From: a virus
Lineage: Duplodnaviria; Heunggongvirae; Uroviricota; Caudoviricetes
Length of the DNA: 4,140 bases
Virus record (IMG/VR): IMGVR_UViG_2547132218_000005
Location: 1-4,140 of that record
Reading direction: 5' to 3' (one strand)
This document shows, in pieces, positions 1 through 4,140 of the stretch (positions are counted from its first letter, which is position 1; each line of letters opens with the position of its first letter). A model generated the notes under the pieces. The model saw only the letters and a list, made by a program, of their open reading frames with translations. It ran no database searches and was not told the DNA's origin. A program made the translations under genes and the position numbers.

Positions 1-20
1 CAGCAAACCGTTTTGCCCGA

Positions 21-36
21 TATGGGAATTCCCATA
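21..36. repeat. 16-bp perfect palindrome TATGGGAATTCCCATA
   Basis: Self-complementary over all 16 positions, lying 11 nt downstream of the small hydrophobic ORF stop. An adjacent imperfect inverted repeat gcaaa-ccgt-tttgc lies at 3..16. Candidate protein-binding site (operator-like) or RNA hairpin. Confidence 0.55.
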
Positions 37-46
37 CGGAATGAAT

Positions 47-151
47 TCAGTTCCCCAGGCGCTCCATCAAAAACACAACCAGGCAGTAAACACCCACAAC
101 AGCAATAACAGCCAGAGCGCCTTCCATTACCAGTGAAATATCATCCGACAT
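47..151 (-). CDS. Small hydrophobic peptide (34 aa, one predicted transmembrane helix); candidate small membrane protein
   Basis: Not in the ORF track (too short). ATG 151..149 is preceded by TCACACCAAGGGAGGGAAT (strong SD, 3-4 nt spacer). My manual translation is MSDDISLVMEGALAVIAVVGVYCLVVFLMERLGN, stop TGA at 49..47. An acidic N-terminus, a ~20-residue hydrophobic stretch and a short polar C-terminus are typical of small phage/prophage membrane peptides and type I toxin-like peptides. The frame is open upstream, but the only other in-frame starts (GTG 196..194, TTG 202..200) lack an SD. Confidence 0.4.
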   Translation of the reverse strand: MSDDISLVMEGALAVIAVVGVYCLVVFLMERLGN

Positions 152-260
152 ATTCCCTCCCTTGGTGTGAATCCCGGCGAACGTTTTTACCCCCACCGAC
201 AAATAACATATACTAGAAAAGCAATAGCTATAGCAACGCCTGCAAATGCATCTGGCCGGC

Positions 261-824
261 TCATTGGTTCTCCCCCTGTGTCGCTTCTACTGCGATCTGA
301 CTGGCGTATTCGTTAATGGTAACGATAAGTTCTTGCTCGGCCTCATCCAGACAACTACCGATACCTCGCCTGTCCACTTCAGAAGCATCGAAATCTGCAC
401 GAAGCCTGGCGACCTTCAGGATTGCGGACAACACCTCATCAGGGATTGCCGGAGAGTTGGTTGACGTTTCCGAGATTATCCGAAAATTATTGGTTGACGA
501 ACCCTTATTTTCCCGAAAGTTTCCAGCCTGAAGCATGGCGGCGCGGTGACACCAGATAATCCAGCCAAGCGCCATATCCCATGCCATGTATTCTCTATCG
601 CCATTTTTTGCTCTGCGGCGATCTACAGATTCCCCGAAACGCTTCTCCATAAATAATTCATAGGCTGCCCGTTCATCCGATACTGATGCCAGTGATGCCA
701 GTGCAATTTTTAATGCGGTAAGCATGTTGTTTTGATCTTCATCGAGTCCGAACGGTATTTCATCCCGTGATGACTCAATTCCGGTAATCGTGTTCTGTAG
801 CCATTCTTTGGTTAATTCAGTCAT
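261..824 (-). CDS. Hypothetical protein (187 aa)
   Basis: ATG 824..822; long open frame with balanced composition. Weak SD (GTAGTGAAAA) and a GC stem-loop 9 nt upstream of the ATG. No family recognised. Stop TGA 263..261. Confidence 0.65.
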   Translation of the reverse strand: MTELTKEWLQNTITGIESSRDEIPFGLDEDQNNMLTALKIALASLASVSDERAAYELFMEKRFGESVDRRRAKNGDREYMAWDMALGWIIWCHRAAMLQAGNFRENKGSSTNNFRIISETSTNSPAIPDEVLSAILKVARLRADFDASEVDRRGIGSCLDEAEQELIVTINEYASQIAVEATQGENQ

Positions 825-833
825 TTTTCACTA

Positions 834-849
834 CCGCCCTTTCGGGCGG
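834..849. other. GC-rich stem-loop (6-bp stem CCGCCC/GGGCGG, 4-nt loop), function unassigned
   Basis: ccgccc-tttc-gggcgg at 834..849. On the minus-strand transcript it reads CCGCCC-GAAA-GGGCGG (GNRA-type loop) and ends 9 nt before the ATG of the 187-aa gene. No U-tract follows on either strand, so it is not a canonical intrinsic terminator. Confidence 0.5.
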
Positions 850-950
850 TCTCCTGATGTTCTGAGGGTGCAGGAATCCCTCCGGTTAAGGATTTAATAA
901 AAATCATTTCTGATTTAAATTTTCAGTGTTTAGTTGTTGGTTTATAGCCT

Positions 951-1262
951 TTATGCTTCGGCCTTATTTCTCAGCCATACACAAACAGGACCATCTTCGG
1001 TGTCATGTATCGAACCGATAAACCATCCCTCACCTTCTGGTCGCTCAGGTTCCCATGCTGAAATATCAGGGCCATCTGCGTCCAGATTAAAATCATCTTC
1101 ATCCATACTACGGATAGCCCACTGAAGATTATTTTTCTCCATCCAGGCGTTAAACTCTTCCGTTGAAATATATTCCCGACCATCACAGAATTTTTCATAT
1201 TCAGGATGCGTCCAGCAGCCATATTCATTACGTTCCACTGGCATTTCTTTAATTACGCTCAT
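951..1262 (-). CDS. Hypothetical acidic protein (103 aa)
   Basis: ATG 1262..1260 preceded by ATAAGGGGGGTAA (SD-like). Acidic, Trp-rich sequence (EYGCWTHPEYEKFCDGREY ... WEPERPEGEGWFIGSIHDTEDGPVCVWL). I do not recognise the family with confidence; resemblance to small phage DUF-type proteins is only a vague impression. The alternative 85-aa ORF at 971..1228 is in another frame of the same region and is less protein-like. Confidence 0.65.
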   Translation of the reverse strand: MSVIKEMPVERNEYGCWTHPEYEKFCDGREYISTEEFNAWMEKNNLQWAIRSMDEDDFNLDADGPDISAWEPERPEGEGWFIGSIHDTEDGPVCVWLRNKAEA

Positions 1263-1447
1263 TTACCCCCCTTATTTAATTTTCTACGACACTTTTTACA
1301 ATCATCTGGACTTTCGAATGTATCCGGCTCACGCTCATTGCCAAAATACATCCACCCACCGCAAATACTTGTTATTTCACCTTCAGCAAAATAATGATGT
1401 TTTTTCGCCATAAGTGACCTTGCCCAGCCCGGATTCGTTTTACTCAC
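1259..1447 (-). CDS. Small Cys/His-containing protein (62 aa), possible metal-binding, GTG start
   Basis: GTG at 1447..1445 is preceded by TCGCAAAGGAGGCAACAA (AAGGAGG about 6 nt upstream), a very good SD. An alternative internal ATG lies at 1411..1409. Contains HH...C(GGW)...C-K-K-C, which could form a small zinc-binding knuckle. Stop TGA 1261..1259 overlaps the next ATG (ATGA). Confidence 0.55.
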   Translation of the reverse strand: MSKTNPGWARSLMAKKHHYFAEGEITSICGGWMYFGNEREPDTFESPDDCKKCRRKLNKGGK

Positions 1448-1800
1448 TTGTTGCCTCCTTTGCGAAGCTCTGCGACTAACTCGTCACATATGTGCGTCAA
1501 AGAGCAAAGTTTGATTGCTGGATGTTCGCGCACCATCTCCACACCCTGCGCCCGCAATTCTGCCAGAAAAGCGTAGGGGTCAGTTTTTTCACTGTGGTAC
1601 ATGGCATCATAGATAATCATTGCAGCGACACCTGCCTGTCCTGCATCTGTGACGGATATATGCTCAAGGGCTACGGCCATTGCGTGTTTCAACCTCTCAT
1701 TTTCCACCTCAAGCACCACACGATTAGCCTCCAGCTCTTCTATGCGTTTTTTTGCTGCTCCCAGCTCAACACGCAGCTCCTGATAGTTAATCTCGCTCAT
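1444..1800 (-). CDS. Hypothetical protein with N-terminal coiled-coil (118 aa)
   Basis: ATG 1800..1798 preceded by GCGGGAGGAAGGAGA (strong SD). N-terminus ELRVELGAAKKRIEELEANRVVLEVENERLKHAMAVALEH has heptad-like charged/hydrophobic periodicity. Architecture is like prophage Ea22-type coiled-coil proteins, but I cannot assert family membership. Stop TGA 1446..1444 overlaps the next start (GTGA). Confidence 0.65.
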   Translation of the reverse strand: MSEINYQELRVELGAAKKRIEELEANRVVLEVENERLKHAMAVALEHISVTDAGQAGVAAMIIYDAMYHSEKTDPYAFLAELRAQGVEMVREHPAIKLCSLTHICDELVAELRKGGNK

Positions 1801-2021
1801 TCTCCTTCCTCCCGCACTGCTGTTTTATATGCCCGAAGCACATGCGATGTTTTTCCTGACACAGTGCTTCTCAGAAAGAAAATTCCACTGGTGTTTATTA
1901 CCAGATACGGGTCAGCAAGACGCAGCATATCCAGTATGTGATTATGTTTTCTTGTTTCCAGCACCGTACTTGAAATAAGCATATGTGACACGGGGCCGAA
2001 ATCATGATATCTGATTTTCAT
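1797..2021 (-). CDS. Hypothetical protein (74 aa)
   Basis: ATG at 2021..2019 preceded by CAGCAGGGTGATGAT (moderate SD), 21 nt downstream of the preceding gene's stop. Its stop TGA (1799..1797) overlaps the next gene's ATG (1800..1798) as ATGA. No recognisable motif; the composition is less protein-like than its neighbours, hence the lower confidence. Confidence 0.45.
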   Translation of the reverse strand: MKIRYHDFGPVSHMLISSTVLETRKHNHILDMLRLADPYLVINTSGIFFLRSTVSGKTSHVLRAYKTAVREEGE

Positions 2022-2042
2022 ATCATCACCCTGCTGTAAAAA

Positions 2043-2753
2043 TTACCCGTTATCTCCTGTCGTTATTTTCTGTATGACATCACGATGCTTATTAATTTCC
2101 CGCAGCGCGGCGCATAAGCGCTCCCACTTCTGAACCTGACCTTTTGCCCGGCGCAGCTCGCGGTTAGCCACATGCAGCGATGGTAAAATCAGACCATCCG
2201 GATGCTTTCTGGTGAACGACGGCTGTGACTGCACTGTGACCGCCACACTTTCCGTTTTTATTTCTTCCTGTGTTTCCGCTTCCCCGACTGGTAACGCAAC
2301 ACCTGCTGGCTGAGGAAAGGCTTTACCATCCGTTTCCGTTATGGATGCGGCTTTCGGCTCTGCCGGTAAATCAGCGCCCGGTATGCAGTACCGAAATTTA
2401 CCGCCCTGATTCACGCGAATCAGACGCCCTTTGCTGATTGCCATGGCCAGTGATGAATTCGCCCGGCGGGAGGTAATCCCGAACATCAGTGCCAGCTCAT
2501 CCGCCGTTTGTGGGCCATGATGTTCAATCGCCTCAGTCAGCATTTGCGCTGTCACTTTCGGTACCGGTGACACTGGTTCACTTTCACCAGTCTGAGTCAG
2601 CCACCACATCGACCCCTTGTTATCCGCTTCACCACGGCGCTTCAGTTTCCACAGTTCGTTGACAGCATCTTCGCGGCTGATTCCAAGGCGCGATGCCACT
2701 ACCTGTGAAGAGGCTTTTTTCAGTGCTTTCAGTGCGTCAAATACGGTTTCCAT
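2043..2753 (-). CDS. Hypothetical DNA-binding-like protein with two winged-helix-like segments separated by an acidic/Pro-rich linker (DUF1627-like, tentative)
   Basis: The track ORF is 2043..2771, but its first codon is TTG with no SD. The first ATG is at 2753..2751 ([13 protein letters not shown]...) and is preceded by GTCGGAGGAAATATTA (GGAGG about 8 nt upstream), so I place the start at 2753. Two segments ([36 protein letters not shown] and [46 protein letters not shown]) have the helix-turn-helix then basic wing pattern typical of winged-helix domains. The DUF1627 label is from memory and unverified. Stop TAA at 2045..2043, 33 nt after the P-like stop. Confidence 0.65.
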
Positions 2754-2786
2754 TAATATTTCCTCCGACAAAATCGTTTCTCAGAT

Positions 2787-3449
2787 TCAAATAAAACCAG
2801 CTGCCTTCCGGCGTTCGTATTCCTGTTTCAGCCGTTCAATTGGCGTTGGCCCTTGCGGGTGTTTCGCCCCTTCCAGTTGTCGTCGCACTGGCGGAACACT
2901 CATCCCGTTACCAACATGCTTTGCCCATTTCGTCAGTTGCCGTTCCGCAAGTCGTTTTAACTCACCTTGCGTCATCTGGCGCTCAATCCCTCTGGTACGC
3001 ATTTCGAGGCAGATGTGGTACAGCACAGGCTGTGGCCACGGGTATTTATCACTCCCGTCGTATCGCCAGGATTCATTGCGCCAGCGCCGGTACTCTTCCA
3101 TCACGGCATCCACCGTAAGACCAAATGGATTTGCCCCACTCTCCGAAATCAGCGCAACAAACTCAGCCAGGTCCGGGGGCCACGTTTCACCCGCCCGGCA
3201 GCGGTCCATGCACTGACGGCACACCAGACGGATTTGCTGTTCAGTCATCGCACCAATCTGGGCAATCCAGAGCTTCGAAGGTGCGGCCCCGTTCTTCTGA
3301 GTCCAGCGGTTCGAATACACCTCCCCCATGAGCTCCCACAGCTTCCAGGCCGTTTCCGTTGCTGATAAATCCGTTGTCACGTTCCCACTGTTCGCGTGCA
3401 GCCCGGATTTCCTGAACTGCCCGTGATGCCGTGCCACCTGATGCTGCAT
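2787..3449 (-). CDS. Replication protein P-like DnaB helicase loader
   Basis: 220-aa ORF. The C-terminal ~150 aa align with lambda P as I recall it (DKYPWPQPVLYHICLEMRTRGIERQMTQGELKRLAERQLTKWAKHVGNGMSVPPVRRQ versus ESYPWKSNAHYWLVTNLYQNMRANALTDAELRRKAADELVHMTARINRGEAIPEPVKQ, and PPDLAEFVALISESGANPFG versus PSPGQFVAWCREEASVTAGLP). ATG at 3449..3447 is preceded by CAGCAAGGGGGGAAGCC (SD-like, ~5 nt spacer). An alternative start is the internal ATG at 3248..3246 (Met68), which sits 2 nt upstream of the initiator stop codon (ATGACTGA) but has a weak SD. Start-site choice is unresolved. Confidence 0.8.
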   Translation of the reverse strand: MQHQVARHHGQFRKSGLHANSGNVTTDLSATETAWKLWELMGEVYSNRWTQKNGAAPSKLWIAQIGAMTEQQIRLVCRQCMDRCRAGETWPPDLAEFVALISESGANPFGLTVDAVMEEYRRWRNESWRYDGSDKYPWPQPVLYHICLEMRTRGIERQMTQGELKRLAERQLTKWAKHVGNGMSVPPVRRQLEGAKHPQGPTPIERLKQEYERRKAAGFI

Positions 3450-4140
3450 GGCTTCCCCCCTTGCTGACTGGTTTTACCTGTGCCCTGACGTGCTGCACGT
3501 GGCGGGCAAATTTCTGCTCCCACTGAACCTGCGTGAAAACCTTCCCCTCCGCCATCCAGTAATCCCGGAATGCGGCAAGCTCAGCAGGTGTAAATTCCGG
3601 CTCAGGCAGAGCCATACCCCACACTGCTGCCCGTTGTCGAAAATCCGGCGACGGCTGCCAGACAGTAGTCATCGAAAATTTCCCGATCGGTTCGCTCAGG
3701 CCGTCCAGGTATTCAGGTTCGGCTGTCTGCAACGGCGCACCATTCGACTCACTGGTCGGAATACTCTCGCGCGCGTTATGTGTGGGGTTTAATTCTGTAT
3801 CTGTATCTTTATCTGTATCTTTATCTGTCGTGACTTGTCGTGACAGATGCGTGACACGTCGTGACTCATCGTGACAATCAGCATTATGTTTCCGCAGCTT
3901 TTCCCGCTCCCGCTGCGCTCTCTTGCGCTCTGCCGGGGATTTTGCCGTTTGCGAAACGTTACCATTGTCCTCTTTCAGCACCTGACGTTTTTCCCATCCG
4001 GAAATAAGGTCACCATCCAGAACCCGCCCCTGCATTGCATGCAAAATTGAATCAATTACGTCTTCCGTCACATCAAGCGCACTTGCTAAATCTTCCGTCG
4101 TGACATCAATGTGACCACGTAGTGACACGCCGTGACATGT
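3241..4140 (-). CDS. Replication initiator (lambda O-like role), 5'-partial, with C-terminal DnaT-like (primosomal protein I) domain
   Basis: ORF track gives 3241..4128, but its first codon is GTG and the frame stays open upstream to the window edge (in-frame codons 4140..4129 read T-C-H-G), so the true start is beyond 4140. The segment IGKFSMTTVWQPSPDFRQRAAVWGMALPEPEFTPAELAAFRDYWMAEGKVFTQVQWEQKFARHVQHVRAQV aligns closely with the C-terminal domain of E. coli DnaT as I recall it ([63 protein letters not shown]). Position directly upstream of a P-like loader gene fits the lambdoid O-P arrangement. The middle of the protein is low-complexity (K/R/E-rich, TDKD repeats) and coincides with the DNA repeats described below. 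Stop TGA at 3243..3241. Confidence 0.8.
   Translation of the reverse strand, partial: TCHGVSLRGHIDVTTEDLASALDVTEDVIDSILHAMQGRVLDGDLISGWEKRQVLKEDNGNVSQTAKSPAERKRAQREREKLRKHNADCHDESRRVTHLSRQVTTDKDTDKDTDTELNPTHNARESIPTSESNGAPLQTAEPEYLDGLSEPIGKFSMTTVWQPSPDFRQRAAVWGMALPEPEFTPAELAAFRDYWMAEGKVFTQVQWEQKFARHVQHVRAQVKPVSKGGSHAASGGTASRAVQEIRAAREQWERDNGFISNGNGLEAVGAHGGGVFEPLDSEERGRTFEALDCPDWCDD
3794..3829. repeat. Tandem hexamer repeat (TCTGTA/TCTTTA) x 6, AT-rich, abutting iteron cluster A
   Basis: tctgta tctgta tcttta tctgta tcttta tctgtc at 3794..3829, about 70% A+T. On the coding (minus) strand it encodes the TDKDTDKDTD segment of the initiator. Confidence 0.8.
3828..3875. repeat. Iteron-like direct repeat cluster A: 5 x (T/G)CGTGAC at 10-11 bp spacing; candidate origin iterons
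   Basis: Units ctgTCGTGAC (3825..3834), ttgTCGTGAC (3835..3844), agatGCGTGAC (3845..3855), acgTCGTGAC (3856..3865), tcaTCGTGAC (3866..3875). GTGAC cores end at 3834, 3844, 3855, 3865, 3875. Because the spacing is not a multiple of 3, the same DNA motif is read in all three frames of the initiator gene (C-H, S-R, V-T, L-S-R, V-T), so the repetition is at the DNA level, not a peptide repeat. Confidence 0.6.
4098..4136. repeat. Iteron-like direct repeat cluster B: 4 x GTGAC at 10-11 bp spacing, may continue beyond the window end
   Basis: ccgTCGTGAC (4095..4104), atcaATGTGAC (4105..4115), cacgtAGTGAC (4116..4126), acgcCGTGAC (4127..4136). Same orientation and core as cluster A; flanking bases are more variable. 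The window ends 4 nt after the last copy. Confidence 0.5.

Follow-up and report, generated by a model that had tools for sequence, protein, structure and literature searches.

The four-gene block and its overlaps

The DNA analysed here, which we call the window, is a stretch of 4,140 nucleotides (nt) from a tailed phage (Caudoviricetes), positions 1–4,140 of IMG/VR record IMGVR_UViG_2547132218_000005. At 951–2021, it carries a block of four small genes on the minus strand, which we name after the number of amino acids (aa) they encode. In the direction of transcription, these are g74 (1797..2021; ATG start; phrog_1001), whose product has an isoelectric point (pI) of 9.6; g118 (1444..1800; ATG start), with an Ead/Ea22/'Eae-like' C-terminal module; g62 (1259..1447; GTG start; phrog_2358), encoding a basic protein; and g103 (951..1262; ATG start), encoding a protein of pI 4.2 with 6 Trp residues. 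The block is 100% identical to ECs_2757–2760 of Sp14, a lambda-like prophage of Escherichia coli O157:H7 Sakai, g74 being ECs_2760, g118 ECs_2759, g62 ECs_2758 and g103 ECs_2757. A sequence-only reading of the window had taken the four genes for a co-expressed unit whose products act together. We consider it likely that they are instead four independent accessory modules, and that there is nothing unusual about this part of the rightward early operon of an Sp14-type lambda-like prophage of E. coli O157:H7.

Each junction within the block is a 4-nt stop/start overlap with a strong Shine–Dalgarno (SD) site inside the upstream gene, the arrangement by which a translationally coupled operon is recognised. 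The overlap of g74 with g118 is ATGA at 1797..1800 (minus strand; tcat on the plus strand), and its SD, GGGAGGAAGGAGA, lies at 1801–1813. That of g118 with g62 is GTGA at 1444..1447 (minus strand; tcac on the plus strand), with the SD AAGGAGG at 1454–1460, and that of g62 with g103 is again ATGA, at 1259..1262 (minus strand; tcat on the plus strand), with the SD AAGGGGGG at 1266–1273. The predicted duplexes with the anti-SD sequence amount to −10.3 kcal/mol for GGGAGGAAGGAGA, −11.6 kcal/mol for AAGGAGG and −11.8 kcal/mol for AAGGGGGG, and the overlaps and SD sites of the sequence-only reading were confirmed at these coordinates. No promoter-like or terminator-like site above chance was found within the four-gene run, and a search of the whole window against Rfam at E values up to 1 gave no match.

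Overlaps of this kind are common in the setting in which the block is found. In the calls of the Prokaryotic Genome Annotation Pipeline (PGAP), 4-nt overlaps occur at 6 of the 32 same-strand junctions of the whole prophage, and among runs of small early genes at other loci they account for 7 of 13 junctions (locus L047) and 6 of 14 (L056). Three in series are within expectation for this type of operon. Moreover, homologues of the block genes in other arrangements overlap unrelated neighbours by 1, 4, 8 or 11 nt, and the g62 homologue of an O91:H21 strain (L002) has the identical ATGA overlap, but with a DUF4406 gene upstream. Since the overlaps have re-formed with unrelated partners, they tell of the mode of expression and not of joint action of the products. 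They represent the compact arrangement usual in early operons of phages, probably with coupling of translation, and are no mark of partnership.

Neighbours of the block genes in other genomes

The block is present at a coverage of at least 80% in 333 of 5,426 complete E. coli genomes (about 333–340). Every intact copy listed is at least 99.5% identical in DNA sequence, so the intact copies belong to one prophage lineage and reflect common descent, not selection; in one further copy of this prophage, IS600 interrupts g62. The other approximately 560 genomes with a match contain parts of the block only, mostly g103 alone at 82–88% identity, and in others the last 43 codons of g118, inside different Ea22-like genes. 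Conservation of the four genes as a block in other prophages had been set beforehand as a test of the cassette, and a single near-identical lineage is all that came to light.

Diverged homologues within E. coli have other neighbours. In the O91:H21 prophage, the g62–g103 pair follows DUF977, helix–turn–helix (HTH) and DUF4406 genes, which stand in place of g74 and g118. In strain E2348/69 (L004), a pseudogene and a DUF977 gene are followed by g103, which lies directly before Q. A third type of prophage (L050–L053) has the order DUF1627, g74, a 102-aa HTH gene, a g74 paralogue, g103 and a gene for a DUF551 protein. Its two g74 paralogues, at 5001–5225 and 5527–5754, are 88% and 38% identical, respectively, to the window protein; the HTH gene lies between them, and the second is directly upstream of the g103 homologue.

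The picture is the same in more distant hosts. A g103 profile scan of a collection with one genome per species yielded 41 loci in 41 species genomes, and neither tblastn nor profile hidden Markov models found g74, g118 or g62 at a distance of up to 6 kb. For the full set of 50 g103 loci, none outside E. coli has g74, g118 or g62 within 4–6 kb, and g62 loci from Trabulsiella, Scandinavium and Salmonella (L047, L048 and L049) have no g103, g118 or g74 nearby. Conserved order or co-occurrence across diverged lineages was not found for the four genes. Diverged homologues sit with other partners, and the block is therefore not a unit; these comparisons indicate that the four are independently shuffled accessory genes and not a conserved cassette.

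This bears directly on the view of the block as one co-expressed cassette with products that act together in host takeover, anti-defence or superinfection exclusion. Three consecutive overlaps with strong SDs, the number of genomes in which the block is intact and its location in a variable accessory region all speak for such a cassette. Nevertheless, the intact copies owe their near-identity to descent from one prophage, among diverged homologues of the four genes there is none that still has the other three beside it, the overlaps re-form with unrelated partners, and there is no match to PADLOC or to anything else related to defence. The lack of co-occurrence largely refutes the cassette, which we regard as very improbable. 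The compact run noted in the sequence-only reading stands; co-action of the products does not fit homologues that have other partners.

Several points weigh against four fully independent modules. The co-occurrence searches covered 4–6 kb either side of each locus, and searches with single sequences or small profiles may miss very distant analogues. In two differently arranged E. coli prophages, the closely related copy of the source prophage (L001) and the O91:H21 prophage, g62 and g103 adjoin with an ATGA overlap despite different upstream genes. In the first of these and in L050–L053, g74 (88% identical between them) follows DUF1627 genes that are themselves very divergent, with 37% identity. 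There may thus be some pairwise linkage. Finally, read-through transcription and translational coupling, as proposed below, are suggested by the layout only.

These adjacencies, together with the g74 paralogue directly upstream of g103 in L050–L053, raise the question of smaller functional pairs, g62 with g103 or g74 with DUF1627. As to the former, 47 of the 50 g103 loci are without g62, the three g62 loci looked up outside Escherichia are without g103, and most E. coli copies of g103 match the g103 part of the query only. As to the latter, the O91:H21 prophage has DUF1627 without g74, and no DUF1627 gene was seen in the region of the g74-family members of Shiga toxin (Stx) phages, Fels-1 and L056. 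Adjacency among close E. coli relatives can be explained by linkage alone, and we judge functional pairs of this kind to be distinctly unlikely. Independent modules remain the reading that we prefer.

Properties of the individual proteins

Profile searches with the four proteins support the earlier statement that none has a confident family assignment. All match PHROGs, with E values from 7e-24 to 4e-55, and every matching PHROG is of 'unknown function'. Against Pfam and NCBIfam at E values up to 0.1, nothing rose above threshold; PADLOC, covering anti-phage defence and toxin–antitoxin systems, gave no match at E values up to 0.1; and sequence and profile searches against the PDB returned chance-level matches only. 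The four open reading frames (ORFs) are genuine coding genes, as seen from the PHROG matches, the family alignments (A1–A4), ratios of non-synonymous to synonymous substitution (dN/dS) of 0.08–0.68 and the AlphaFold2 (AF2) models. The descriptions given in the sequence-only reading also hold, namely a coiled-coil-like N-terminus in g118, the His and Cys residues of g62, detailed below, and the acidic, Trp-rich character of g103.

The g74 family, which corresponds to a PHROG of unknown function, comprises 3 clusters in a word-indexed search and about 20 representatives of 73–77 aa, with identities down to 31%, in an exhaustive HMMER search. Its dN/dS values are 0.29–0.68, the highest for the closest pair and the lowest for the paralogue pair. 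The AF2 models have predicted local distance difference test (pLDDT) scores of 88–90, and that of g74 is confident, with a predicted β-β-α-β-β-α sandwich fold. From the model, g74 would be a small ACT/ferredoxin-like α/β domain, a fold that typically serves ligand binding or dimerisation. The order of its elements differs from the classical ACT order, which is β-α-β-β-α-β, and its sequence is just 7–15% identical to those of ACT domains (aspartokinase regulatory domains and bacterial microcompartment shell proteins). There is no ACT match in Pfam, and neither profile nor topology places g74 in the ACT family. The ferredoxin-like fold is very common, so it permits no functional inference for g74.

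In the genome records of Stx phages and Fels-1, members of the g74 family are located some 2 kb from an end. The match in TL-2011c adjoins a DUF4222 gene, a type met in this study in integrase-proximal early regions, and the family also occurs in an AlpA/primase element.

The 3 clusters of the word-indexed search and the dN/dS of 0.68 for the closest pair might suggest that g74 is not translated, and a similar doubt attaches to the 12-codon N-terminal extension of g62, which PGAP and RefSeq call as a 50-aa protein (ECs_2758) from an internal ATG. For g74, the doubt is met by the diverged HMMER family of uniform length, the confident model and the dN/dS of 0.29 for the paralogue pair. For g62, the N-terminal GWAR(P) motif ('AGWARP') is conserved as protein in 17 homologues, those of L002, L047, L048 and L049 begin with ATG, and in L002 this ATG is at the codon homologous to the GTG start. 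In addition, the SD of the internal ATG is weak (−5.7 kcal/mol versus −11.6 kcal/mol at the GTG). That one or more of the ORFs go untranslated therefore seems to us extremely unlikely. The conservation supports GTG as the correct start of ECs_2758, giving 62 aa rather than 50 aa, as the sequence-only reading had it; this form restores the 4-nt overlap with g118.

The g62 family contains 16 clusters, and the match of g62 to phrog_2358 has an E value of 2e-30 over residues 1–60. Residues H17, H18, C29, C50 and C53 are invariant across the 17 homologues (alignment A2), the last two forming a C50-x2-C53 pair, and dN/dS is 0.08. On this pattern, g62 is probably a basic His/Cys3 zinc-binding mini-protein; considered as a member of the zinc-ribbon/treble-clef mini-proteins, it gave no match to Pfam or PDB profiles. 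The surroundings of its homologues are diverse. The Trabulsiella gene is in an integrase-proximal 'ea'-type region, that of Scandinavium is near an integrase, and that of Salmonella is between Gam and GemA/Mor in a Mu-like prophage (L049). The family is also found in virulent coliphages.

The N-terminal half of g118 is coiled-coil-like, with weak matches only to coiled-coil profiles. Residues 54–118 are 58–86% identical to the C-termini of proteins in phages HK629, ev099, D6 and phiKDA1, and for the C-terminal 43–65 residues the same range of identity holds with proteins annotated as ead/Ea22-like or Eae; source annotations name g118 itself an 'eae-like protein'. In many E. coli genomes, and in plasmids of about 94 kb, ead/Ea22-like genes contain pieces of its DNA. 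The PHROG matches are to phrog_492 (E 6.8e-24) and phrog_368 (E 4e-19), and the match to Pfam Ead_Ea22 (PF13935; residues 12–82), with 18.1 bits and an E value of 0.0041, is under the 27-bit gathering cutoff. A phmmer search of all PDB chain sequences gave 5 weak matches at E values up to 10, with no Ea22 chain among them. The Ead_Ea22 protein encoded upstream of the g62 homologue of L047 was considered as a counterpart of g118 and rejected (BLASTP E value of 0.2).

Proteins of the Ead/Ea22/Eae type belong to the exo–xis region of lambda and to the ea region of P22. Ea22 of lambda is reported to favour lysogeny (PMC7093339, PMC10834534) and to form a tetrameric coiled coil; it is described as a three-domain protein (PMC10834534). 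The succession in g118 of a short N-terminus, a coiled-coil-like segment and a C-terminal module agrees with that three-domain description. With 118 aa and a place in the rightward nin-like region, g118 differs from lambda Ea22, which lies between exo and xis. From its sequence, g118 would be a coiled-coil oligomer with an Ea22/Eae-type C-terminal module, and by analogy with lambda Ea22 its role would be to interact with the host and modulate the choice between lysis and lysogeny.

The g103 family is the most widespread of the four, with 160 clusters across Enterobacterales. Its members share an invariant C-terminal motif, W-P-x2-P-x-G-x-GWFIGSIHDTEDGPVC-WLR, and dN/dS is 0.24–0.35. The protein is acidic and Trp-rich, α/β in its predicted fold, and no fold relative was found for it in the PDB. 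Longer family members and extended ORFs, searched against Pfam for a fused domain, gave no match. In other prophages, g103 precedes excisionase and integrase genes of the same strand, at distances that range from a few hundred bases to about 3 kb.

The g103 family is not confined to phages. By tblastn, the family is present in 2,029 plasmids of PLSDB, 1,756 of them predicted to be conjugative and 1,496 from Klebsiella. On a K. pneumoniae IncFII plasmid, the order is traI, traX, finO, a PIN-domain gene, a hypothetical gene, a DUF2726 gene and then g103 as the last (WP_004152383.1), at the distal end of the tra region, where it overlaps the DUF2726 gene by 4 nt. At 16 loci (among L020–L042) from Pantoea, Erwinia, Enterobacter, Citrobacter, Siccibacter and Atlantibacter, g103 is inside an F-type transfer operon, in the order TrbI, TraW, two or three unknown genes, g103, TraU, TrbC, TraN. 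The notion that g103 is an immunity partner of the Klebsiella DUF2726 protein was set aside as speculation only, the phage copies being without a DUF2726 neighbour. A literature search with the Klebsiella plasmid accessions of this neighbourhood found no paper with either accession, and mentions of DUF2726 only.

A precedent for such a spread is TraR/lambda Orf73, a small family common to the F tra operon and lambdoid phages (PMC9239242). Like it, g103 extends over the F-plasmid transfer operon and lambdoid early accessory regions. The analogy is one of distribution only and does not imply binding to RNA polymerase; g103 has no sequence or fold similarity to TraR/Orf73 and no Pfam DksA/TraR match. 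Because it also occurs in conjugative plasmids, g103 would probably bind a host factor that matters to mobile elements generally. It is also conceivable, though in our view unlikely, that this uncharacterised family serves mobile elements at large and acts in establishment or counter-defence through binding to a host protein or nuclease, perhaps with help from the adjacent g62 in some phages.

The 126-nt intergenic region that follows g103 (825..950; minus strand) is conserved and accompanies it. Across four differently arranged loci (alignment A5), the mean column identity is 93%, so that the region is conserved at least as much as g103, and copies were located at 1,536 places in 834 genomes of E. 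coli, with up to 4 per genome. It contains a hairpin, ACCGCCC-GAAA-GGGCGGT, 11 nt ahead of the start codon of the next gene. Folding of the RNA gives a z-score of −3.2, and a match in Rfam was not found. L050 does not keep the hairpin, and a structural role is therefore uncertain. The region might act as a site of regulation, or else as a linker for recombination.

The early region of the source prophage and its mosaic character

The rest of the window places the block in its operon. Upstream, also on the minus strand, are a replication gene of the O type, which contains a DnaT domain (3241..4128) and is cut by the window edge; a lambda-P-like gene (2787..3248 or 2787..3449, by choice of start); and a DUF1627 gene (2043..2753; Pfam PF07789, E 1.3e-78), annotated as such by PGAP in L001 and L058. 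The start of g74 is 21 nt downstream of the end of the DUF1627 gene. The block had been described as directly downstream of the replication genes; it does lie past O and P, with the DUF1627 gene between P and g74. On the other side, 3′ of the 126-nt gap, is a gene for a 187-aa protein (261..824; minus strand).

The O-like gene contains an iteron-like array (3794–3876 and about 4098–4140), with 4.9 copies of GTCGTGACAC at 3827–3876. The heptamer TCGTGAC occurs 5 times, against 0.45 expected by chance. A 12-nt tandem repeat, TCTTTATCTGTA, is present in 2.9 copies at 3794–3828 and codes for a TDKD repeat. By analogy with lambda, the array is probably a replication origin within the initiator gene. 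The Pas small RNAs of a preprint that mentions DUF1627 were considered as candidates for a small RNA inside the window and rejected; they adjoin holin/lysozyme genes, outside the window.

In the closely related copy L001, the order of transcription is Cro-like, YdaT, O-like, P, DUF1627, the block, the 187-aa gene, hokD, DUF968, RusA and Q, with three tRNA genes past Q and lysis genes further on. The block thus lies between the replication genes and the Q antiterminator of a lambdoid early-right operon, more narrowly between O/P/DUF1627 and DUF968–RusA–Q, and the assignment to a variable nin-like region was borne out. By position, this variable region is the counterpart of nin in lambda. In lambda and P22, the nin region (ninA–ninH, between P/ren and Q) consists of small, tightly packed, often overlapping and dispensable genes that vary among lambdoid phages, and the block resembles it in this as well as in coming after replication genes and before RusA/Q-type genes. 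The likeness is positional only; in the Pfam and NCBIfam searches, none of the four proteins reached the threshold for NinB/Orf, NinE, NinF, NinG/Rap or NinH.

Several observations are signs of a mosaic. The best match to the whole window (1–4140) in complete E. coli genomes is just 96.6% identical, and the block is found at 100% in many O157:H7 genomes; it is therefore mainly in O/P/DUF1627 that the source prophage departs from the reference copies, a further sign of mosaicism. Over its first 100 residues, the 187-aa protein is 86–87% identical to the N-terminal part of a DUF551 protein of 176 aa in another prophage (L050, 6189–6719), and the C-terminal halves differ, so the mosaic reaches inside genes. 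A search of the literature by ECs locus tag found one paper that names the block genes, and a search by WP accession found none. In that paper, a large inversion of the chromosome in bovine O157:H7 strains is traced to crossing-over in a 174-bp repeat at ECs_2759/ECs_2760, which is common to Sp14 and Sp6 and was mapped with primers in these genes (PMC7430833). The region is thus a substrate for recombination between prophages.

Overall, the preferred reading may be put as follows. The stretch is part of the variable accessory region that separates the replication genes (O-like with its DnaT domain, P and DUF1627) from DUF968–RusA–Q. Each of the four genes would have been drawn from a pool of small accessory genes of the 'ea/nin-type' in lambdoid and other temperate phages, exchanged by recombination at or near gene boundaries. 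They would have no promoters of their own and would be transcribed by read-through from the early promoter, and the stop/start overlaps, with an SD in the upstream gene, would let ribosomes re-initiate from one gene to the next.

The finding, as it was put, matters little, since this is a textbook mosaic accessory region in a lambdoid prophage of a fully sequenced and much-studied pathogen, and the block consists of uncharacterised members of a well-known kind of region. By-products of the analysis are the corrected start of ECs_2758 and, for two proteins with no assigned function, defined families along with confident structure models. The g103 family, which is common to phages and to thousands of conjugative, often resistance-carrying plasmids, would be a sensible choice in a screen for accessory functions of mobile elements.

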